Assembly: GCA_937992175.1 (NCBI GenBank)
Contig: CALKLF010000022.1
Location: 16,318 to 80,317, forward strand
Direction: 5' to 3'
Length of the DNA stretch: 64,000 nt
DNA from: an uncultured Fimbriimonadales bacterium
GTDB taxonomy: Bacteria > Armatimonadota > Fimbriimonadia > Fimbriimonadales > GBS-DC
Position 1 is the stretch's first letter. The number at the start of each line of letters is the position of its first letter. The translations under genes and the position numbers were made by a program. A model generated the notes under the pieces. That model had not been told where the DNA came from and did no database searches. It was given only the letters and a program-made list of their open reading frames with translations. This document shows, piece by piece, positions 7,988 to 57,121 of this stretch.

Positions 7988-8143
7988 GTATCCTCCTTTC
8001 TGAGGTTGGGCTACTGTGCTAGGGCGAACCAGCACAGTGCGTCTAAATTATAGCACATTTTGCAGGGTTTGTCAAGGGGTTTCAAAGCCATGAGGGGGAA
8101 ATTCGGGGGAATTTAGAGACTATCTACGAAAGTGAGTGAACTA

Positions 8144-8256
8144 CCCTCACCCCCAACCCCCTCTCCCACAGCGTGGGAGAGGGGGGCTTCCTGAAAGTAG
8201 CGCAGCGACGCTATCTCCCCTCTCCCGCGTCGCGGGAGAGGGGCTGGGGGTGAGGG
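8144..8256. repeat. 113-bp nested GC-rich palindromic element (type A)
   Basis: Outer inverted repeat ccctcaccccca / tgggggtgaggg encloses two hairpins (cccctctccca[cagcg]tgggagagggg and cccctctcccg[cgtcg]cgggagagggg). Confidence 0.85.
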
Positions 8257-8418
8257 CAAAAAAGCGCACGATAAGCCCTCCTGCAGGGAGAAACGGAAAG
8301 CCCACCACTTTTCCCAGATAGCCTTTCAGGGCATTTTCCGAACACCCTCAGGAGTTTCAAAGCCATGGGGGGGAAATCCGAGGGACTTTAGAGACTATCT
8401 ACGAAAGTGAGTGAACTA

Positions 8419-8530
8419 CCCTCACCACCAACCCCCTCTCCCACAGCGTGGGAGAGGGGGCTTCCTGAAAGGAGCGCAGCGACGCTGGCTCCCCTCTCCC
8501 GCGTCGCGGGAGAGTGGCTGGGGGTGAGGG
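8419..8530. repeat. 112-bp type-A palindromic element, second copy
   Basis: Same architecture as 8144-8256, inside tandem unit 2. Confidence 0.85.
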
Positions 8531-8659
8531 CAAAAAAGCGCATGCCAACCCATCCCGCACTGGCAAACGCACAGAAAGCTCCCTACATTCCCAAGATAGC
8601 CCCTTACCCTTTTACTGTACACGCAGGAACCGCCTAACGGGGTACAATTACCTCTGTCT

Positions 8660-10444
8660 ATGACAACGACTTGGCAACGGACTCATCCCTGCGGTGTTTT
8701 GCGAACGGAGCATATCGGACAAACAGTGCGCTTGAACGGCTGGGTGCATCGCGTGCGCGACTTGGGTGGCTTGGTATTTGTAGACCTGCGCGACCGCACA
8801 GGGCTGGTGCAGGTGGTGTTCGACCCTGCGATTAGCCCCGAGTTGGTGGAACAGGCGAGCAACCTGCGCGTGGAGTATTGTATCGCCATAGAGGGCGAGG
8901 TGCGTCGCCGACGCCCCGGCGCGGAGAACCCCAAGATTGCCACTGGCGAGATCGAAGTGTTCGCCCACGCGCTGCATATCTTCAGCCCTTCCAAAACGCC
9001 GCCCTTCCAAATCAACGAGGAGAACCTGGAGGTAGACGAGAGCCTCCGCCTCAAGTATCGCTACTTAGACCTGCGCCGTCCCGCGATGTACCAGCGACTG
9101 GAGCTGCGCCACCGCATCGTGAAATACATCCGCGATTTCCTCTCCGAGCGCGGCTTTCTGGAGGTGGAGACGCCCATCCTCATCAAAAGCACGCCTGAAG
9201 GCGCACGCGACTACCTCGTGCCCAGCCGCCTTTACCCGGGCAAGTTCTACGCGCTGCCCCAGTCGCCCCAGCAACTGAAACAGCTGCTGATGGTGGCAGG
9301 TGTGGAGCGTTATTTCCAAATCGCGCGCTGCTTCCGCGACGAAGACCCCCGCGCCGACCGCCAGCCTGAGTTCACTCAGCTGGACTTGGAGATGGCGTTC
9401 GTCACGCAGGACGACATTTTGAACCTCATCGAGGAACTCTATATTGGGATGATCGAAACCTGCACGGACAAGCGCGTGCTGAAGCCGTTCCCACGCCTCA
9501 CCTACGACGAGGCGATGGAGCGCTACGGCACAGACAAGCCCGACCTGCGCTTCGGGCTGGAGCTGCATAACCTGACCGAACTACTCCGCGAGACTGAATT
9601 TCAAGCGTTCCGAAGCGTGATAGAGGCAGGGGGCGTGGTGAAAGCCCTCTGCCTGCCCCAGTGCGCCGACTACTCGCGCAGGCAGATTGACGAACTCACC
9701 GAATTCGTGAAACGCTTCGGTGCGAAAGGGCTGGCGGCGATTGCGTTTACCAGCGAGGGCATCCGCTCACCCATCGCAAAGTTCCTCAGTGAGGCGGAAC
9801 TCAACGCTATCCGCGAGCGCACGGGGGCGAACACGGGCGACCTGGTGGCAATTGTCGCCGATAAGCCCAAAATCGTGAACGAGTGCCTCAGCCGCCTGCG
9901 CCATCGGATGGGGCAGGAACTCGGCTTAGCCGACCCCAACCTCATGGCGTTCGCTTGGGTGGTGGACTTCCCCCTACTGGAGTGGGATGAGACGGAGGGG
10001 CGCTGGAACCCTTCGCACCATCCGTTCACCGCGCCACGCGAGGAAGATATCCCCCTGCTGGATACCGACCCTGGCAGGGTGCGGGCGAACTGCTACGACC
10101 TCGTGTGCAACGGCAACGAACTCGCCAGCGGCAGTATCCGTATCCATCGGCGCGACCTGCAGGATAAGATTTTCAAGCTGCTGGGCTACTCCGACGCCGA
10201 GATTCAGGAGCGGTTCGGACACCTGCTGGAAGCGTTCGAGTACGGCGCGCCCCCACACGGCGGTATCGCGCCCGGCATCGATCGGCTGGTGATGCTCTTG
10301 GCAGGCGATGAGACGATTCGGAATGTGATTGCCTTCCCGAAGAACACAGCGATGGTGGACTTGATGTTCGGCGCGCCCTCGCCCGTCAGCGAGGAGCAGC
10401 TGAAGGAACTCCACTTGCGCATCGTACTGGACGATGAGGATTGA
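8660..10444 (+). CDS. aspS: aspartate--tRNA ligase
   Basis: 594 aa. OB anticodon-binding N-terminus and class II motifs ([32 protein letters not shown]). Confidence 0.95.
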
Positions 10445-11498
10445 AAGGAACGCGTCGGCGAAAATCAACCTCACCCTTGAGGTGCTGGGACGCCGTTCGG
10501 ACGGCTATCACGAGATTGCGAGCGTGATGCACACGCTGAGCCTGTGCGACACGCTGGTTATGGAGTTGCCCAACGCGCCCGTGCTGGATGCGGCACGGGG
10601 GGAGATTGTGATTGAAGACCCTCACCCCCCTTCCCCCCTCTCCCACGGCGTGGGAGAGGGGGGATTAGGCTCCCCCTCTGCTGCGTCGTGGGCGAGGGGG
10701 CAGGGGGGTGAGGGCGTTCCCACTGATTCACGCAACCTTATCTGGAAGGCGGTGGAGGCGTTTGTGAACAGTTGCCCTCACCCCCAGCCCCTCTCCCACG
10801 GCGTGGGAGAGGGGGGAATAGGCTCCCCCTCTGCTGCGTCGTGGGCGAGGGGGCAGGGGGGTGAGGGCTGCTCATGGAAAGCCACTCTGATTAAGCGCAT
10901 CCCCACCCAGGCAGGCTTAGGCGGGGGCAGCAGCGACGCCGCAACCGCGCTCCTGTGCCTTGCCGAGTGGGCGCGGCGGTGGGATATCCACCCGCCTGAT
11001 TTGCACACGCTCGCCGCCCAGCTGGGCGCGGATGTGGCGTTCTTTCTGAACGGCGCGTGCGCCTTCGCCTGCGGCAAGGGCGAGATTCTCAGGTCCTTGC
11101 CCACCCTGCCCCAGTTCCGGTGGGTTATCGCCAAGCCGTATGGCGTGGGCGTGCCCACCGCGTGGGCATACCAGCAGCTTCAGCGGGGCGCGCTCCCGCC
11201 CAGCCCCCGCGCGCCCTACACCGAACGCCTCGTGAACGCCCTGCAGCAGGGCGCAATCAAAACCCCCGCCAATCTCGTGCCCTTGCTGCATAACGATTTC
11301 GACGAACCCATCCTGAACGCCATCCCCGAACTGCAAACCCTACGCCAGCAAATGGAGCAAGCGGGCGCGCTGAAAGTGATTCTCTGTGGCAGCGGCGCGG
11401 CGCAAGCAGCGTTATGTGAAAACCAGCAGCAGGCTGAGCGCGTCGCCAACGCTCTCCTTCAGCAGGGCTACTGGGCAATCGCTGCAACTACCCCTTGA
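10434..11498 (+). CDS. ispE: 4-(cytidine 5'-diphospho)-2-C-methyl-D-erythritol kinase, carrying two in-frame repeat insertions
   Basis: GHMP kinase motifs ([41 protein letters not shown]). The ATG overlaps the aspS stop. At 354 aa it is about 63 aa longer than expected because of elements at 10619-10714 and 10775-10867. Confidence 0.85.
10619..10714. repeat. type-A palindromic element inside ispE (96 bp, 32 codons)
   Basis: ccctcacccccc...cccctctccca[cggcg]tgggagagggggg...ggggggtgaggg. Translated as [32 protein letters not shown]. Confidence 0.85.
10775..10867. repeat. type-A palindromic element inside ispE (93 bp, 31 codons)
   Basis: Near-identical second copy 60 bp downstream. Translated as [31 protein letters not shown]. 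Confidence 0.85.
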
Positions 11499-11572: not shown

Positions 11573-12802
11573 ATGAAAGGCTTTACTTTGCTAAGCGCGG
11601 TAGCGCTGACGACGGTGTTGTCCAGTGTTGCGACGGCGCAGAAGTCCGTTCCCAGCGCGGGCTTGAACGCCGAAGAAGCACGTACTGTTGTTCTGAACCA
11701 GCTCCCCGAGATCCGACACATCGACCTGAGCGGCGACTTCCAGCCTGCAAGCGGCGCGAACCCCTACATCTACCTGCAGACGATGGTTGCCCGCTGGAGT
11801 GACGCAGGGACTTATGCGTTCAGCTACGCGCCGTTTACGAACGCGCGTACTGTAGGCGACGATGTCGTGTTGATGAGCAGCACGCCCGATCCAGGCGCAG
11901 GCTACAGCACGACGACCCCTGTGGCTTGTCTGTCCGGCTTTACCTTCGCAATTGCCGCGGTAAACCCCCTTCCCGATCCGAGTTCGCAGGGTACTCTGAG
12001 GCTCAACATCGCGTTCTACCCATGGAATGGTCTGTTTGGGACAGCGGCAGCAGCCCCCGCAATCGCCACTGAGTCCGTAGACATCACCTTCGCCCCGAAC
12101 ACCACCACTGCGGTCATTTTGGTGACGCTCTCCGCACAGAACATTCAACTGCCCAAGGCGTTCTGGATTGCCTTTGAGCCAGACCAGATTAACTCCAACA
12201 ATGTCAACCTTGCAAACATCGGTCCTGTGATCTCGAACAGCACACCGGGCAGTGTATCGCTGTTGCCAGGACGCGGCTACTTCCGCTCCGCGACCCCGCC
12301 GACAGCGTTTACTACAGTGACGGGCGGCAGTGTATTTACGACGATACCACAAGGCTCGTTGTATCTTGCGCTGCGCGGTACGCACAACTTCGTGGGAACC
12401 ATCGATATGAGCGCGCTGAGCAGCCGGGCGCAGCCTCAGGATCCGCTTCTCTTTGAGTTTGATACGGGTACCGACGCTGAGAAAGCGTTGCGCCGCAACC
12501 TCGTCGATGTGGAAGTGGTGAATGACAGCGGTACGCCGTTCATTTCGCGCTTCAGTACCTATATCGATGAGAAGGGGCAATTCACGTTGCCCGTGTCTAA
12601 CGCCATCGCATCCATCACTATTCGCCGCTGGGACAACGGGCTGGCGGTGACTTTCAACCGCCCGGCAGACGGCTGGAGCACGGATGTGTGCAACCCCACG
12701 ACCGCTACTGCCCAGATGACCTTCGGCGATGTGAACGGCGACGGCATTATCGACGACGCGGATCTGCTGACCGTGCTGTTCGGCTTCGGCAACATCGAGT
12801 AA
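11573..12802 (+). CDS. secreted protein with C-terminal dockerin-like (EF-hand type) module
   Basis: AGGAGG RBS at 11561-11566. Signal peptide MKGFTLLSAVALTTVLSSVATAQ. C-terminus GDVNGDGIIDDADLLTVLFGFG. Confidence 0.7.
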   Translation: MKGFTLLSAVALTTVLSSVATAQKSVPSAGLNAEEARTVVLNQLPEIRHIDLSGDFQPASGANPYIYLQTMVARWSDAGTYAFSYAPFTNARTVGDDVVLMSSTPDPGAGYSTTTPVACLSGFTFAIAAVNPLPDPSSQGTLRLNIAFYPWNGLFGTAAAAPAIATESVDITFAPNTTTAVILVTLSAQNIQLPKAFWIAFEPDQINSNNVNLANIGPVISNSTPGSVSLLPGRGYFRSATPPTAFTTVTGGSVFTTIPQGSLYLALRGTHNFVGTIDMSALSSRAQPQDPLLFEFDTGTDAEKALRRNLVDVEVVNDSGTPFISRFSTYIDEKGQFTLPVSNAIASITIRRWDNGLAVTFNRPADGWSTDVCNPTTATAQMTFGDVNGDGIIDDADLLTVLFGFGNIE

Positions 12803-12804
12803 AC

Positions 12805-12847
12805 CCTCACCCCCTTGTCCCCTCTCCCACGCCGTGGGAGAGGGGGT
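12805..12847. repeat. half type-A element or hairpin between convergent genes
   Basis: ccctcaccccc followed by hairpin cccctctccca[cgccg]tgggagagggg (12819-12845), then gTTTaTacTTT. Possible bidirectional terminator. Confidence 0.6.
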
Positions 12848-14935: not shown

Positions 14936-15976
14936 TTATCGCGTTCGGGTGACCTTTTGTAGTCCTCGCGGCTGGTCGGGGTTCAGGTCGCGGGCGAGGG
15001 CAAGATGATAGGCGAACAGCTGCCCCGCGACGGCGTATACAATCGGCGAGAGGGTTTCGGAAACGCTCGTCGGCATGGGGATAGGCGTGCGGGCGAGGCT
15101 CAGAATCTCATTATCGCTGGCGAAGATGAGGGTCTCCGCGCCACCCGCTCGCAGTTTCGATGCGCTCTCCAACGCCGTCGGAAAGGTCGCCCCGTCGGGC
15201 GCGAACAGCAGACACGGAAAGCCATGCTCAATCAGCGCGAACGGGCCGTGCATAAAGTCCGCGACGGAGTACGCTTTACACATCACATAGCAGGTCTCAA
15301 TGAGCTTGAGCGCGGTCTCCTGCGCCGTCGCCTGATTGATCCCGCGCGCCAGCGCAACGCACTCGCGCATATAGCGGTAGCGGTCTGCAATCTCCCGGAT
15401 GCGCGGCTCGGTTTGCATGACCTGCTCGACCCGCGTCGCCGTTTCGTGCAACTGTTGAGGCGCGTGGGGGTTATTGCGCAGGGCTTCGGCGAGCAGATAA
15501 ATCACAGCGAGCGTGCCCGTGTAGGTTTTGGTGGCGGCGACGCTGCGCTCTGCCCCCGCGCGCAGCAGCAAGGTGAAATGGCTGGCATGGGCAAGAGGCG
15601 ATTCAGGCTCGTTTGTAATCGCCAGTGTGAACGCGCCGTTCGCCTTCGCATGGGCGAGGTACTCCACCACATCAGGCGCCTGACCCGACTGCGAGATTCC
15701 GACCACCAGCGCGCCTTGCAGGTTCAGCTGCGCTCGGTAGAGCGTGACAACCGACGGCGCGGCTAAACCGCAGGGCATTCCGAGTTCGATTTCAAACAGA
15801 TATTTGAAGTAGGCGGCGGCGTTATCGGAAGTGCCCCGCGCGGCGAGAAAGACATACTTCAAATCGTGGTCGCGAATCTGCTGCACGATGGTCTGCATCG
15901 CGCGCCAGCTCTCGTCCGCGATCCGACGCAGCACTTCGGGCTGCTCGCCAATTTCCGAGCGCATTAGGTAAGACAT
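14936..15976 (-). CDS. double-SIS-domain sugar-phosphate isomerase/aminotransferase-like protein (GlmS C-terminal-like; AgaS/FrlB/NagB-II group)
   Basis: 346 aa with two SIS modules (ARGTSDNAA..., GISQSGQAPD). No glutaminase domain. Its stop lies 3 nt before the panC start. Confidence 0.7.
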   Translation of the reverse strand: MSYLMRSEIGEQPEVLRRIADESWRAMQTIVQQIRDHDLKYVFLAARGTSDNAAAYFKYLFEIELGMPCGLAAPSVVTLYRAQLNLQGALVVGISQSGQAPDVVEYLAHAKANGAFTLAITNEPESPLAHASHFTLLLRAGAERSVAATKTYTGTLAVIYLLAEALRNNPHAPQQLHETATRVEQVMQTEPRIREIADRYRYMRECVALARGINQATAQETALKLIETCYVMCKAYSVADFMHGPFALIEHGFPCLLFAPDGATFPTALESASKLRAGGAETLIFASDNEILSLARTPIPMPTSVSETLSPIVYAVAGQLFAYHLALARDLNPDQPRGLQKVTRTR

Positions 15977-16537: not shown

Positions 16538-16812
16538 GTGACGGCATTCTTGCTGTCGCATGTTGAGGATACCCCAGCGACACGACGGCAGGAATGCCGT
16601 CGCACCAAAAGCCGTGAACGATCGGACGCCTCTGGTCAACCCACGCCTCAGGCGACACGACGGCAGGAATGCCGTCGCACCAAAAGAGGGCGTTTTCACA
16701 TTAGAAACACTTAGGTGTTTCCAATGTAAAAACGCCCCTTCTCTGCACGCTGGCGTCCCTGCCTCGTCGTCGCGGAGCATACCTGGCAAGGCGACGGCAG
16801 GAATGCCGTCGC
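16538..16812. repeat. cluster of four GACGGCA-GGAA-TGCCGTC hairpins (type C)
   Basis: Exact 35-bp direct repeat gcgacacgacggcaggaatgccgtcgcaccaaaag at 16577-16611 and 16652-16686. Third copy at 16791-16812. A reverse-oriented variant lies at 16538-16559. Confidence 0.9.
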
Positions 16813-16845
16813 CCAGAAGAAGGATGATTTCACTCTCCGAGATGC

Positions 16846-22332: not shown

Positions 22333-24462
22333 CTAAGGCGCGGTGTCCAGCAGGAACGCCTCCCGTCGACCCGTGGCGGCGTTGTAGCCGAACCCGACGA
22401 TGTAGCGTTTGTTGGGCGAGACCGCGTATGCCTCCATCAGCGCGCTGCCTGGGCTCAGCAACGGCGCATACTCCAGCTGCAACGGGCGCAGACCGCTTAG
22501 CGTATCCCAGAGCATCGCCATCCCGTTCGCGGAGCCGACCACGACCGAGCCGTCCGCCGAGACGGAGCGCGCGGTCATCGCGCCGAGCGACTGCATCGCG
22601 CCGTCGCGCCAGCGAAAGCCCTGCCACCGCCCTGAGCTGTCGCGACTGATTCCCACAATCGTCCGCCCATCTGCCGAGACGCCGCAGGCAATGCTCTCCT
22701 TGCCGCCGAGCGTACCCATGTCCTGCATGCCTGTGCTGGGCGTCCATCGAAAGGCGCGCCAGTCGCCTGAAGCATTTGAAGCATAGCCGACCACGATGGC
22801 GCCGTCGTTTGAGGCTGCCGTCGCGAACCCTGTCGCGCCGCCGAGCGTTCCCAGCCCTTGCACGATCCCCAGCGTATTCCAGCGCACGGCTTGCCACCGC
22901 CCGCGCCCGTCGCGACTGGAACCCACCAGAAACGCGCCGTTGCCTGAGACCGCCCCGCTGTGCGTAAAGACGCCGCCCGAGAGTGGCGTCAACGCCTGCA
23001 TGCCCTGTGCCTGCGTCCAGCGGAAGCCGTAGGTACGCCCTGCGCTGTCGACGCTATAGCCTGTGACGACCGAACCGTCCGCTGAGACGCCTGTGGCGTA
23101 GCTACCCGCTAAGGTTCCAAGCACACCAATCGTCTGCATCCCGCCGCTCGGCGTCCAGCGGAACGCCCGCCAGCGACGCGCTGCGTCCATGCTGGAGCCG
23201 ACCACCACGCCACTGTCCGAAACGCCCGTCGCTATGCTGCTGGGACCGCCCAGCGTGCCGAGCCAGGTCAGCCGCCCGATCCACTCCGCGCCCATATCCA
23301 GCACGAACACTTCGAACCGCCCCCGTGCTGCGTTGTAGCCCCGCCCCACGATAAAGCGACGCGTGTGCGACACAGACTGCGCGTTTTCCAGATAAGAACC
23401 CGACGCGAGCAGCGCGCTATAGCGTTGATTCAGGTCTACCAGCCCGTTGCGTTCCGTCCACAGCACGGCGCGCAGGTTCGCCTGGGCGTCCTCTGCGCAC
23501 CCTGCGAGCATTCTGCCGTCCCGCGTGCTGTGGTTCATCAGGCTCCACTGTCCGCCCAGCGAGCCGAGGCTCTGAATCTCGCCACTCGCCCAGCGCACTG
23601 CCAGCAGGTTGCCACTGGCGTCTTCGGCGTTGCCGTAGATGACGCTGCCGTCCGCGGAGACCCCAGTGGCGTTGCTCCAGTTGCCGCCGAGCGTACCCAA
23701 TTCTTGCATGCCCGTCGCCTGCGTCCACCGAAACGCCCGCAATTGTCCCTCCGCGTTCTCCGAAACGCCCACGATGACCGAGCCGTCGGCGGAGACGCCC
23801 GTGACGCTGCTCCAGTTGCCGCCGAGCGTGCCCAGATCCTGCATGCCTGTCGCCTGCGTCCACCGAAACGCCCGCAGATTACCCCCTGCATTCTCGAAAT
23901 CCCCCACCACGACGCTACCGTCCGCCGAGACGCGCTTCGCCTCGCTCCAGACGCCCCCCGACGGGACGCCCAGATTCTGCATCCCGCCGCTCGCCGTCCA
24001 GCGAAAGGCGCGGAGGTTGCCGTTGGGGTCTTCCGAGATCCCAACTACCACCGAGCCATCGTCGGAGATGGCATGCACCTCACTCCATGTTCCTCCTAAC
24101 GAGCCGAGCGAGCGCATCCCTGTCGTGGGCGTCCAGCGGAAGGCGAACACCTTGTTGTCCGCCGTTTCTGCGGAGCCTGCCACGACCGAGCCGTCGGAGG
24201 AGACTGCCGTCGCCGCGCTCCAGCGTCCCCCCAGCGTGCCCAGATTTTGTATGCCGCCCGTTAATGTCCAGCGGAATGCGCGTCCCTCGCCTGAACTGAG
24301 CGTCGATTCGCCCACCACAGTCATCCCGTTCGCCGAAACGGCGGCAACCTCGCTCCAGGGACCACCCAGCGTGCCCAGCCAGTGCAGCTGCTGCCCCCAG
24401 AGTGCGTGCGTCAGCCCAACGACGCACAGAATCCCTCCCACGAAACGCGCCGATATACGCAT
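22333..24462 (-). CDS. HAF-family extracellular repeat protein
   Basis: 709 aa with a signal peptide. At least 14 tandem repeats of about 44 aa, of the form FRWT...GMQ.LGTLGG.WS.A.GVSADGSVVVG. Confidence 0.75.
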   Translation of the reverse strand: MRISARFVGGILCVVGLTHALWGQQLHWLGTLGGPWSEVAAVSANGMTVVGESTLSSGEGRAFRWTLTGGIQNLGTLGGRWSAATAVSSDGSVVAGSAETADNKVFAFRWTPTTGMRSLGSLGGTWSEVHAISDDGSVVVGISEDPNGNLRAFRWTASGGMQNLGVPSGGVWSEAKRVSADGSVVVGDFENAGGNLRAFRWTQATGMQDLGTLGGNWSSVTGVSADGSVIVGVSENAEGQLRAFRWTQATGMQELGTLGGNWSNATGVSADGSVIYGNAEDASGNLLAVRWASGEIQSLGSLGGQWSLMNHSTRDGRMLAGCAEDAQANLRAVLWTERNGLVDLNQRYSALLASGSYLENAQSVSHTRRFIVGRGYNAARGRFEVFVLDMGAEWIGRLTWLGTLGGPSSIATGVSDSGVVVGSSMDAARRWRAFRWTPSGGMQTIGVLGTLAGSYATGVSADGSVVTGYSVDSAGRTYGFRWTQAQGMQALTPLSGGVFTHSGAVSGNGAFLVGSSRDGRGRWQAVRWNTLGIVQGLGTLGGATGFATAASNDGAIVVGYASNASGDWRAFRWTPSTGMQDMGTLGGKESIACGVSADGRTIVGISRDSSGRWQGFRWRDGAMQSLGAMTARSVSADGSVVVGSANGMAMLWDTLSGLRPLQLEYAPLLSPGSALMEAYAVSPNKRYIVGFGYNAATGRREAFLLDTAP

Positions 24463-31673: not shown

Positions 31674-31764
31674 CCATCGAGGCGTTAGGTTAGCTGAGGA
31701 CAAGCGCCTTAGATGAGAGCGCGGTTGCTTGCCCTCACCCCTACAGCGCGGGAGAGGGGAGCTG

Positions 31765-32002
31765 CTGATAAGGGTACGCTGCGTCGCCTCAACTTGGGGA
31801 GACGCGGCTGGAATTGTCCACGCTGTTTCAACCTCACCCCCCAACCTCCTCTCCGTCAACGGAAAGGGGGTATGCCCGCCCTGCACACGCTCGGCTCCCC
31901 CTCTCCGTTGACGGAGAGGGGGCTGGGGCGTGGGGGTAAGAAAGCGTGGGAAATCGCAAGCGCGTCTCCCCAAGTCGAGGCAACGCGATGTACCCTTGTC
32001 AG
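31765..32002. repeat. 238-bp MITE-like composite element (type B) with 36-bp imperfect terminal inverted repeats
   Basis: Left arm ctgataagggtacgctgcgtcgcctcaacttgggga (31765-31800). Right arm tccccaagtcgaggcaacgcgatgtacccttgtcag (31967-32002). 30/36 positions are complementary by hand alignment. The interior holds a type-A-like nested palindrome. Confidence 0.7.
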
Positions 32003-32105
32003 GGGGGGCAAGGGGGGTGAGGTCGGAAAAATCGGCGGCGTGCGCGGCGAGATGGCGCTCAGACACGGTATCCATATCAGGAGAGAAATCGAGGACGCGC
32101 TTGGC

Positions 32106-32176
32106 GCGACGGCATTCCTGCTGTCGCGCCCGAACCGAGGTACCAGTGCGCCACACGACAGCAGGAATGCCGTCGC
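32106..32176. repeat. pair of oppositely oriented type-C hairpins
   Basis: gcgacggca[ttcc]tgctgtcgc (32106-32127) and cgacagca[ggaa]tgccgtcg (32156-32175). Confidence 0.8.
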
Positions 32177-32308
32177 ACCAAGCGAACGATTTTGGGGGGT
32201 AGGCGCTTATTACTTCAAGCACCAACAGAGGATTCAGCGGCGGAAAGTCGCTGTTGTTCCGAGCGAAGCAAGGAATCTGAAAACGGGGGAGACGCGCTTG
32301 CACAGTTA

Positions 32309-52175: not shown

Positions 52176-53936
52176 ATGCGCGTTTACAGTGGGGTTTCGA
52201 TCTGGCTCGCTGCGGCGGCGATGGGCTTTGGTCAGGTCGCCAGCGAGCGTGTGGGCGTTACGGTCGCAGGGAACAACCTTACTGTGCGCCCCGCGCCGTG
52301 CAGCGCCAGCAGTCTGGGGTCGGCACAGGCAGGCGTGGACGGCGCTGTGCTGGGCGCGAGTGAGACCTGCAACAGCCTTATCTGGTTGCCTGTCCGCTGG
52401 GCAAATGAGTTGCAGGGCTGGTCGGCGACGGGCGCGGGTGGAGCCGACTACCTTGTTCCGCTGGCGGGACAGGGTGTGTTCCCGAATGTGTCGGCGCCGC
52501 TGGCGTATCCCGTGCGCGTCGGACCGAACGCCTCCGCGCTGAATGTGCGCACAGGACCAGGCACAGAATACGCTATCATCACCTCCCGAGCGGCAGGCGC
52601 GACAGGCTGGGCGTTTGAAGTAGCCAACAACACAGCGACCAACATCGTGTGGTGGAAAATCCGCTGGGACGACGGTGTGGTTGGTTGGTCGGCGGAGGCG
52701 GTGCGCGGGGCGGGCGTCTACCTGTCCCGAACAGGCGCGCCGCGCTTGAAGTTTCGCATCACCCTGCATATCCACGGCGCGACAGGCGTTGCTGTGAGCG
52801 TCAGCCCTGCCGACATGAACACGGGCGCGGCGGAAGTGAATGCGCCCGCAACACTCGTTTATCTTGCCGGACAAACGGTGACCCTCACCGCGCCCGATGT
52901 CGCGCCCAACGGCGCGACCTTCAGTCGCTGGCTGGTCAACGGTGAGTCGTTCTTGCGCCGTACCATCACGCTGCGGCAGGCGCAACACTACCGAATCACG
53001 CTGATTTACAGCCCCACGATCCCCGCCACCGAGGACGAGTTCCTGTGCAATCTGGTCGCGCCATGGCGACAGGGGCAAATCTGGCTCCCCTCGACCTATG
53101 ACTCCCACGCGGGCGGCAACCCGCAGTTTGCCGTGGACTTCAACCGCCTCTCCAGTGCGCGCAGCACTTGCCCCTACTTTAACGGCTTTGTGCAGGATTG
53201 CAACGAGCCGATGCTGGCGTCGCACTGGGGGCGCGTTTACACCCGCGCTCAGAGCGGCTGTGCGGGCTACGGTAATTTCGCGGTTGTCGTGAGTAATGTG
53301 CGCCTGCTCGGCTCCAGTAATATCTACCTTGCCACGATTTACGCGCACCTGAACTATTTTCTGGCTCCGAACGGCGCGGTGGTGGACGCCGGCGCGCCGA
53401 TCGGACGGCTCGGCAGCACGGGCAACTCGTCGGGGCCGCATCTGCACTATGAGGTGCGCTATGTGACGGTTTCCGGGGGCGCCATCACGCTGGGGACACG
53501 CATTCAAGTGTTGAACAACCCGCGTGTTCGGCTCAGTGGGCAACCGTTGCAGGTCGATTTCAACTGCCCCGTTTCGGGACTGGGGTACGGCGGTCCAGCG
53601 ATTGTAGGCACCGCGCCGCTGGGCGGTCTGCCGGCGAACATCGAGCCGCCCTGTGCGCCCTTTAACTGCCCCGGCGGCTTGACCGGCGGGGAGTATTTTC
53701 CCGATTTCGAGCCGAGCCGTTGCGAGGGCGAGCTGCCTGAAACCCTCACGCTCTACCTTGCCGATGTGAACGGCGATGGCTGCGTCGACGACGCCGACCT
53801 GTTGCAGGTGTTGCAGCGTTTCGGCGAGGCGTGCGAATCGGGCGAGGATATCAACGGGGACGGTGTGGTGGATGATGCCGACTTGATGCAGGTGCTCCTC
53901 GATTTTGGGCAGGGCTGCACCGCGTCGGCGCCGTAG
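52176..53936 (+). CDS. secreted M23 metallopeptidase with SH3-like domains and tandem dockerin-like C-terminus
   Basis: Signal peptide. Two bacterial SH3-like segments (LNVRTGPGTEYAII...). M23 motif GSTGNSSGPHLHYEVR. C-terminal DVNGDGCVDDADLLQVLQRFG and DINGDGVVDDADLMQVLLDFG. Confidence 0.8.
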   Translation: MRVYSGVSIWLAAAAMGFGQVASERVGVTVAGNNLTVRPAPCSASSLGSAQAGVDGAVLGASETCNSLIWLPVRWANELQGWSATGAGGADYLVPLAGQGVFPNVSAPLAYPVRVGPNASALNVRTGPGTEYAIITSRAAGATGWAFEVANNTATNIVWWKIRWDDGVVGWSAEAVRGAGVYLSRTGAPRLKFRITLHIHGATGVAVSVSPADMNTGAAEVNAPATLVYLAGQTVTLTAPDVAPNGATFSRWLVNGESFLRRTITLRQAQHYRITLIYSPTIPATEDEFLCNLVAPWRQGQIWLPSTYDSHAGGNPQFAVDFNRLSSARSTCPYFNGFVQDCNEPMLASHWGRVYTRAQSGCAGYGNFAVVVSNVRLLGSSNIYLATIYAHLNYFLAPNGAVVDAGAPIGRLGSTGNSSGPHLHYEVRYVTVSGGAITLGTRIQVLNNPRVRLSGQPLQVDFNCPVSGLGYGGPAIVGTAPLGGLPANIEPPCAPFNCPGGLTGGEYFPDFEPSRCEGELPETLTLYLADVNGDGCVDDADLLQVLQRFGEACESGEDINGDGVVDDADLMQVLLDFGQGCTASAP

Positions 53937-56694: not shown

Positions 56695-57121
56695 GTCGCT
56701 TGGGCGTCCCGCCCAAGCAGGACTATGTCGCCTGGACAGTCCTGTCCAGGCCTCGTCGCTCGGGCGTCCCGCCCAAGCAGGAAATATTTCGGCTCATGCC
56801 AAGGACCTCTCGCCTTCAGCTCGGAATAACAGGATCGTTTTTGCTCAAATTACGCGGTCATTCCGAGCGGAGCGAGGAATTGCGCCCGATCAAAACGGGC
56901 GGGTCGCAAGTCAATAATTTGCCGTCAGCGGGACACTGACGCTCCGCAACCACTAAGTCGTATTACTGGGGGAGCGACGGCAGGAATGCCGTCGCGCCAA
57001 GTAGCCGTATTGCCGAGGGGCGACGGCAGGAATGCCGTCGCGCCAAGTAGCCGTATTGCCGAGGGGCGACGGCAGGAATGCCGTCGCACCAAAGGGCGGC
57101 ACGGACAGGAATGTCCGTGCC
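56695..57121. repeat. dense hairpin/repeat array filling the nrdB-nrdA spacer
   Basis: Two cttgggcg[tcc]cgcccaag hairpins (56695-56722, 56755-56782). ctggaca[gtcc]tgtccag (56731-56750). A degenerate type-E element (56805-56882). cgtcag...ctgacg (56923-56941). A 46-bp tandem repeat x2.7 carrying type-C hairpins starting at 56975, 57021 and 57067. ggcacggaca[ggaa]tgtccgtgcc (57098-57121). Confidence 0.9.

Follow-up and report, generated by a model that had tools for sequence, protein, structure and literature searches.

The 64,000-nt stretch of DNA analysed here (the window; coordinates are positions in it, and it covers only this part of the source genome) carries an ispE gene with two GC-rich palindromes, here called type A, within its reading frame. 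Probably, copies of a dispersed repeat family were inserted into two loops of IspE and are carried in a functional enzyme. The inserts are members of such a family: they align with intergenic copies in the same window, and the unit from which they are built recurs in relatives. Below, the window IspE is designated P0001, homologous proteins have P-numbers and loci of relatives L-numbers; inserts 1 and 2 of the window are W_s1 and W_s2, and IG1 is an intergenic copy.

The two palindromes within ispE

10434..11498, + strand: ispE coding sequence (CDS), 354 aa, 4-diphosphocytidyl-2-C-methyl-D-erythritol kinase (open reading frame (ORF) list, TIGR00154, Pfam, structures)
10619..10714, + strand: insert 1, 96 nt, palindrome, inverted pair of BoxC/TMECO-like units, residues ~62-94
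10715..10774, + strand: native spacer between the inserts, 60 nt, conserved segment, predicted local distance difference test score (pLDDT) 84-98
10775..10867, + strand: insert 2, 93 nt, palindrome agreeing with insert 1 in family, strand and codon phase, residues ~114-145
10902..10943, + strand: ATP-binding glycine-rich loop, residues 157-170, intact, pLDDT >95

A sequence-only reading had described two type-A palindromes inside ispE, 60 bp apart, and coordinates, lengths and encoded peptides were found as claimed. Its further statement that the inserts are in frame, stop-free and of 3n length was borne out by the ORF frame and the coordinates. Both inserts begin at a third codon base (codons 62 and 114), contain no stops in the ispE frame and have lengths that are multiples of 3. 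Their 81-nt cores differ by one mismatch and are spaced by 153 nt (repeat family D10); the right half of both copies is written CCCTCTGCTGCGTCGTGGGCGAGGG. Since two of the six frames are open in insert 1 and three of six in insert 2, a stop-free frame is a modest coincidence and not in itself improbable. For RNA folding, minimum free energies were calculated at 37 C. As RNA, the elements folded into a single ~45-bp hairpin at -83 to -91 kcal/mol (insert 1, -89.9; insert 2, -82.8), compared with an average of -35 for other 96-nt windows of ispE. At 70 C, values of -51 (insert 1) and -47 kcal/mol (insert 2) were obtained.

For loop lengths, residues were counted between fixed anchor columns in an alignment of 89 IspE homologues. 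IspE homologues are labelled as metagenome-assembled genomes (MAGs) of Fimbriimonadales/Armatimonadota, many of them from hot springs, and the taxonomy of the window follows from such labels and from its 99.8-99.97% identity to contig L001. Site 1 comprised 9-12 residues in outgroup IspEs vs 37 in the window protein, and site 2 comprised 4-14 vs 37. Relative to Mycobacterium IspE structures, the window protein has ~34 (site 1) and ~28 (site 2) extra residues. An AlphaFold2 model built on the 89-sequence alignment had a mean pLDDT of 89.2 and a predicted TM-score (pTM) of 0.87. Its pLDDT was 95-99 across the core and fell to 43-77 only over residues ~61-95 and ~111-150 (insert 1, 43-71 over residues 61-90; insert 2, 49-77). 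Judged from this model, the inserts are probably disordered, Pro/Gly-rich loop extensions of the N-terminal domain. Their earlier assignment to two variable loops thus holds: both loops are short in outgroups, and in the model the inserts depart at low confidence from a core of high confidence.

The gene read from 10434 to 11498 is a true ispE. Its product scored 174.8 bits with TIGR00154 (IspE equivalog), above the curated cutoff of 138.7, and contains GHMP_kinases_N (PF00288) and GHMP_kinases_C (PF08544). The solved structures (PDB) that it matched best are IspE. With the AlphaFold2 model as query, the top 18 Foldseek matches were all IspE (TMt 0.78-0.84), the best being 4dxl/1uek/3pyd (TMt 0.81-0.84). 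The catalytic motifs had been described as intact, and K10, N12, H26, G161-G164, S166, S167, D200 and G319-G321 are indeed all present, at columns that are invariant or nearly invariant among the 89 homologues. In the ATP loop, P157, G161, L162, G163, G164, S166, S167 and A169 were invariant across the same set. Within the spacer between the inserts, P96 and N101 were invariant and D98 nearly so. By reference to E. coli IspE (PDB 1OJ4), we take Lys10, Asn12 and His26, together with the G-x-D-V-x-F Asp, to be the substrate/catalytic residues. ispE is presumably essential in the source organism.

For dN/dS, core and insert codons were treated separately by the Nei-Gojobori method. Core values were 0.17-0.19 for insert-bearing pairs (window/L002, window/L003, L002/L003, L103/L104) and 0.16 for the window vs the insert-free L105. 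With core values this low with or without inserts, ispE is under purifying selection and is not a pseudogene. The insert codons gave 0.35-0.70, with 40-50% amino-acid identity vs 73% in the core; the inserts are therefore far less constrained than the core. The ispE product is presumably made with the inserts included.

Upstream of ispE lies one operon partner:

8660..10444, + strand: aspS (aspartyl-tRNA synthetase), ORF, upstream operon partner of ispE

The ispE ATG and the aspS end share 11 nt, and this overlap and the synteny were kept in every locus fetched (L001-L003, L103-L105). Pfam tRNA-synt_2/GAD domains were detected on the aspS orthologues of syntenic loci.

The repeat family and its unit

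Besides the ispE inserts, the following family members were located in the window:

8144..8256: 113-nt intergenic copy of the family, canonical double hairpin whose centre is longer
8419..8530: 112-nt intergenic copy of the family, lying in a ~275-bp tandem duplication (its second copy)
12804..12846, - strand: single unpaired BoxC/TMECO-like unit, downstream of the gene following ispE
~31730-32023: degenerate interrupted type-A copy

The intergenic copies at 8144-8256 and 8419-8530 align with the ispE inserts except for a central segment of ~21 nt, and W_s1 and W_s2 are 90-91% identical to IG1. The hairpin motif gave 18 strand-hits in the window vs 0 expected from shuffles. When one genome per species was scanned, the unit was found at at least 98 loci, mostly in Fimbriimonadales/Armatimonadota MAGs; further matches listed were in Chloroflexales (Viridilinea, Oscillochloris) and Burkholderiales (Cupriavidus, Roseateles, Mitsuaria). 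This alignment and dispersal confirm that the inserts belong to the same family as the intergenic copies. The accompanying description of a palindrome that 'litters' intergenic DNA was overstated: the 64-kb window contains four paired elements, half of them inside ispE, one single unit and one degenerate interrupted copy. Among the matches listed, full paired elements were 87-127 nt long, with size classes of ~87-98 and 109-113 nt.

Judged from its blocks, the type-A palindrome combines, in inverted orientation, two BoxC/PIT/TMECO triplex motifs, for which triplex formation is predicted. The half-palindrome is built from CCCTCACCCC and a 12-bp hairpin (CCCCTCTCCCAC / GTGGGAGAGGGG), joined by a linker of 2-4 nt. 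On the opposite strand, the unit of ~42 nt reads CCCTCTCCC, a loop, GGGAGAGGG, a short linker and GGGTGAGGG. Nine window units fit this three-block pattern with no more than 2, 1 and 1 mismatches per block, and the E. coli hrpB-mrcB units fit it too. In the ispE copies, blocks 1 (CCCTCTGCT) and 2 (GGGCGAGGG) of the right-hand units are degenerate. In the window pairs the GGGTGAGGG/CCCTCACCC blocks are outermost, and a single ~45-bp hairpin can form from the entire element. Block-to-block spacers were 7-9 and 5-8 nt, vs loops of 1-6 nt in the ITxF search definition; the unit hairpin stem runs 2 bp past block 1 and leaves a 3-nt loop. No GTAG/CGTC tag was found at the unit end: the units end GCCCTCACCCC / GGGGTGAGGGC, and CGTC occurs solely in the hairpin loop. 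The BoxC/PIT motif was reportedly described by Bachellier et al. in the 1990s and by Hoyne et al. in 2000. As a three-block intrastrand triplex motif, BoxC/PIT/TMECO is set out for E. coli in Table 1 of Holder et al. (2015, PMC4666352), who found it in >260 genomes.

Rfam was considered as a source of identity and rejected; it returned only sub-threshold, microRNA-precursor-like matches (21-37 bits vs gathering scores of 40-128), attributable to a generic long hairpin. The literature on Armatimonadetes palindromic repeats turned up only CRISPR-related papers.

The ~40-nt unit with linker and extended stem was seen in three phyla, and its wide conservation agrees with reports on TMECO. In Burkholderiales mostly single units were found (Cupriavidus L005, L019, L021, L036, L048, L056 and L066; Roseateles L028; Mitsuaria L038). 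In the Chloroflexales loci (L007-L010, L037, L040, L068) the unit also occurs inside large genes (polyketide synthase, SNF2 helicase).

Among the at least 98 loci sampled, copies were found in frame in long ORFs; for six of these ORFs Pfam domains lie on both sides or around the insert, namely CarB (L044), TilS (L014), M16 peptidase (L033), DUF5693 (L025), ResIII helicase (L080) and SNF2 helicase (L096). The proposal that insertion is length-filtered was not established by a census of 3n lengths. Intragenic-like elements measured 93, 90, 90, 109 and 127 nt (plus 96 nt in an ambiguous class); the distance between termini can depart from 3n if the flanks were altered as well. Among intergenic-like elements, 11 of 25 were multiples of 3, dominated by the 111-nt class. 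The short 87-98-nt class is also intergenic, and the commonest intergenic class in one relative is 111 nt, which is 3n.

The type-A element is presumably mobile. The degenerate copy at 31730-32023 is apparently split by a ~240-bp insert (31763-32003, termini CTGATAAGGGTAC...GTACCCTTGTCAG) resembling a MITE (miniature inverted-repeat transposable element). A terminus of the CTGATAAGGGTAC/GTACCCTTGTCAG type adjoins type-A units in L006, L047, L061, L099 and L100, and the same terminus flanks a DDE_Tnp_1 gene in L103 (5796-6968). From these adjacencies, an insertion sequence (IS) family seems to target type-A palindromes, as some ISs target repetitive extragenic palindromes (REPs).

Other repeats were recorded in the window. 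The two intergenic type-A elements lie one per copy in the ~275-bp tandem duplication (8075-8574, 87-95% identical, D7/D8) directly upstream of aspS; L001 matches the window only from 8432 on, and this region may be collapsed or rearranged in L001. A second hairpin repeat family, with GCGACGGCAGGAATGCCGTCGC then ACCAA, occurs at 16576-16833, 32107-32197 and 56968-57108. Three 46-nt copies of it stand head-to-tail at 56971-57108 (D2/D4), and a similar unit was found in L053. Periodic repeats of ~135 nt, 60-75% identical, span 22652-24378 (D1/D3/D5), where repeat domains are presumably encoded. Dockerin/EF-hand-like coding repeats (DVNGDGIIDDADLL...FG) lie at 12727-12790 and 53762-53909 (D9), in the gene downstream of ispE and in a distant gene.

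History of the insertions and competing explanations

For the history of the inserts, a neighbour-joining (NJ) tree of the IspE core was used. Loops are extended at site 1 and site 2 alike in all eight members of the window clade (P0001, P0003-P0007, P0009, P0010), but in none of the sister group (P0013, P0014, P0019, P0053, P0055) or the outgroups. P0018 and P0028, labelled 'Synechococcus sp. RC10B2/RC10A2', nest within the Fimbriimonadales clade, which suggests that those cyanobacterial assemblies contain Armatimonadota contigs.

At site 2, the L002 copy has a left junction (TTGC|CC) identical to that of the window, and W_s2 and L002_s2 are 78% identical, against 77-81% in the flanking coding DNA. 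Since the copies diverged as much as their flanks and have the left junction in common, the site-2 copy appears to be orthologous and old. In L003 the left half of the site-2 copy is lost, and the site-1 copies of relatives are heavily decayed. The insertions thus look old and clade-wide by comparison of the relatives. W_s1 and W_s2 are 97% identical to one another, and 78-82% identical to the orthologous-site copies in L002/L003. They have a common derived right half, with four private substitutions from the canonical hairpin that were found nowhere else in the 791 kb compared. The derived right half, CCCCTCTGCTGCGTCGTGGGCGAGGGG, also gave 0 matches in a metagenome scan of JGI data, a scan that is uninformative if the population is absent there. 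These four shared private substitutions indicate that the two window copies are probably not independent and that gene conversion took place between them. Old insertions at both sites, followed by gene conversion in the window lineage, would be the simplest account. What had been read as tolerated colonisation stands as regards in-frame inserts in a living ispE, with the refinements that the insertions look clade-old and that the copies, which have substitutions in common, are probably not independent.

A 153-nt tandem duplication was considered as the source of the two copies and rejected; the sequences downstream of them are unrelated, and in orthologues each site has a decayed copy of its own.

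In a second clade, site 2 was found in three states that interleave among sequences of close relationship: type A read in a different frame (PLSRVAGEG...GRGAGGEG), type A in a long form that has a module nested within it (59 aa), and a type D palindrome, ACCCCCCTCCTTAAGGTTCCCCC...GGGGGAACCTTAAGGAGGGGG, encoding PPLREGN...RGNLKEG. Type D is also scattered between genes in these genomes, and its folding energy is -72.6 kcal/mol. The L103 and L104 genomes are closely related yet hold different elements at this site: type D in L103 (10278-10375; intergenic copies at 853-953 and 15490-15592), and in L104 (10260-10430) type A in its long form, whose nested GGAGTGCGGAAGC...GCTTCCGCACTCC module has further copies at L104 12405 and 19370. 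Both elements come from families with intergenic copies in the vicinity. Because the site holds a type-A variant or another palindrome family in a related clade, IspE site 2 would be a recurrently remodelled, permissive hot spot. A third IspE insertion of 24-35 aa (DADG..SS.GTPTVR.. repeated) was seen after FFLNG (query residue ~207) in P0008 and P0011, and in no other homologue.

On the account favoured here, two surface loops in IspE's N-terminal domain would have received copies of a dispersed family, in a stop-free frame, in the ancestor of a Fimbriimonadales clade. The copies would have been carried as loop extensions that leave the GHMP-kinase core undisturbed, so that the enzyme is proposed to have remained functional and under purifying selection. 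The inserted segments, under relaxed constraint, would erode by substitutions and in-frame deletions. In the window lineage the site-1 copy would have been overwritten by, or co-converted with, the site-2 copy, and the outcome would be a couple of direct repeats, 97% identical and spaced by 153 nt, which put recombination and assembly at risk. The insertions presumably preceded the conversion.

The main alternative to gene conversion, two independent recent (re-)insertions of an active sub-family into the same loops of the window lineage, is unlikely. It would fit copies that resemble one another (97%) and same-genome intergenic copies (~90%) more closely than the orthologous-site copies of L002/L003 (only 78-82%), and it has a parallel in the re-use of site 2 by different families in other lineages. 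However, the four private substitutions occur nowhere else in the 791 kb or the metagenome scan and no master copy is known, while the left junction common with L002 and the 78% identity of W_s2 and L002_s2, equal to flank divergence, are as for an orthologous copy. Still less probable is exaptation, in which hairpin/triplex-prone DNA or the Pro/Gly-rich peptides would have become functional, e.g. in temperature-dependent control of ispE translation or as an interaction loop. The inserts are kept in frame across a clade of ~67% amino-acid identity, their dN/dS is below 1 (0.35-0.70), and the structures, very stable at 37 C (-90/-83 kcal/mol), are weaker at 70 C (-51/-47). Yet the insert sequence is poorly conserved (40-50% vs 73% core amino-acid identity), it is partially deleted in P0006, P0007, P0009 and P0010, in other lineages unrelated elements take its place, it is absent from the sister clade and outgroups, and AlphaFold2 gives it no confident structure.

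A decaying pseudogene, or inserts that arose as assembly artefacts from mis-joined repeat reads, can be given very little weight. MAG assemblies are error-prone at repeats, and L001, an ENA contig from the same population and 99.8-99.97% identical to the window, has a 153-nt collapse: it lacks exactly the 153 nt between the repeats and has a hybrid copy. That hybrid copy is nevertheless in frame, independent assemblies of at least seven related MAGs have in-frame inserts at both sites, and the window gene has an intact frame, all conserved motifs and a core dN/dS of 0.17-0.19. P0002 (L001 3001-3912) matches the window IspE exactly except that 51 aa between the repeats are missing; the gap takes in the native spacer and the invariant PTD..NL motif. 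Because the absent segment encodes an invariant motif, L001 is more likely the artefact, and the L001/P0002 form most likely arose when the assembly collapsed at the direct repeat of 153 nt, and was carried into protein databases. That the segments are ancient conserved parts of IspE deserves practically no credence. The mycobacterial GQGEG/GEGADQ just before VPTD superficially resembles the end of insert 1, but dozens of outgroup IspEs lack both segments, and the DNA is palindromic and 90% identical to intergenic repeats; this origin is refuted by the intergenic homology and by the outgroups without the segments.

Several points weigh against the favoured account. Two hairpins predicted at -83 to -90 kcal/mol within a CDS might hinder translation. 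No target-site duplication was found at the junctions GAAGA|C...C|GTTCC, AGTTG|C...C|TGCTC and AACTA|C...C|AAAAA, and no ORF of the RAYT (REP-associated tyrosine transposase)/IS200-like type was detected in six-frame ORFs of 791 kb, in a crude scan by regular expression for HUH...Y motifs. TMECO is without a link to known mobile elements, and the 23 copies of E. coli MG1655 are always intergenic (PMC4666352). The NJ tree is approximate, and with it the number and order of gains and losses are uncertain. The 153-nt gap of L001 is either a collapse or a deletion variant. No second ispE was found within the 64-kb window, the remaining genome being outside view.

Relation to known repeats and meaning

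In-frame palindromic repeats in housekeeping genes are already established, and the present case resembles Rickettsia palindromic elements (RPEs) and intragenic REPs and is no new kind of system. RPEs are AT-rich. The likeness to them is one of behaviour only: palindromic repeats in frame in many unrelated housekeeping genes, and also outside genes. RPEs are ~100-150 bp, are confined to Rickettsia and are not expected to be related in sequence to the GC-rich BoxC-type units, whereas the hosts here are Armatimonadota (and Chloroflexota) and the peptides are Pro/Gly-rich and modelled as disordered. In the summaries of the RPE work (Ogata et al. 2000 Science, 2002 Genome Res; PMC10969869, PMC3733652), the added peptides were judged compatible with fold and function.

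With TMECO the type-A element has in common the same three blocks in the same order, a GC-rich and multi-copy character, single units as well as inverted 'palindromic' pairs, occurrence in many phyla, local rearrangement and partial deletions, and no known transposase. TMECO has been reported sometimes in inverted pairs, and in association with local rearrangements and partial deletions (PMC4666352). The strict intergenic location seen in E. coli was not found here: copies lie in ispE, carB, tilS, the M16 peptidase gene and others, and the paired units are predicted to be translated in ispE and, in relatives, also in carB, tilS etc. The GGGTGAGGG blocks point inward in the E. coli hrpB-mrcB pair and outward here, where they form the base of one long hairpin. 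By block definition the loops would also be longer here (7-9 nt), though the stem runs 2 bp further.

REPINs are reportedly the subject of work by Bertels and Rainey. REP dimers resemble the type-A element in consisting of short GC-rich units whose inverted dimers form a longer hairpin (~45 bp here), and in being targets for IS/MITE insertion, as at window 31763-32003. Unlike REPs/REPINs, the units here have no GTAG/CGTC tag at their end, and no RAYT gene accompanies them in 791 kb by the crude test. Intragenic REP dimers encode 20-30 aa, and double insertions in one gene are known in uvrA of Opitutus terrae and uvrB of R. conorii (Di Nocera et al. 2013, PMC3733652). With MITEs the element has in common that it is a small, non-autonomous repeat with inverted termini that is occasionally in frame in ORFs; ERIC, QMITE1 and Anabaena MITEs make in-frame fusions (PMC10969869). 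It differs from them in lacking a target-site duplication at the ispE and intergenic junctions, in being palindromic as a whole and not at its termini alone, and in that no related autonomous IS was identified.

What is modestly new is the coding location of a family so far described as intergenic, and the repeated reshaping of a single loop by more than one family. The range of 'selfish palindromes in essential genes', in frame and best known so far from the RPEs of Rickettsia and a small number of REP families, is thereby extended to another phylum and another repeat family. Near-identical intragenic repeats also lead to assembly collapses, as in L001/P0002 without its invariant motif, and to distorted or inflated MAG protein families. 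The IspE series provides a natural time course of insert ageing and of GHMP-kinase loop tolerance, with insert-free, decayed, homogenised and family-swapped states. More tentatively, and with considerable doubt, BoxC/TMECO palindromes may form a general protein-coding palindrome system in thermophilic Armatimonadota/Chloroflexota, in which surface loops of essential enzymes act as self-perpetuating fragile and landing sites; the pattern that points this way is IspE site 2, with canonical type-A, long type-A and unrelated type-D elements in closely related strains. If so, a palindrome-bearing loop would be repeatedly broken, converted and re-colonised, and would thereby become a hypervariable peptide cassette in a conserved enzyme.

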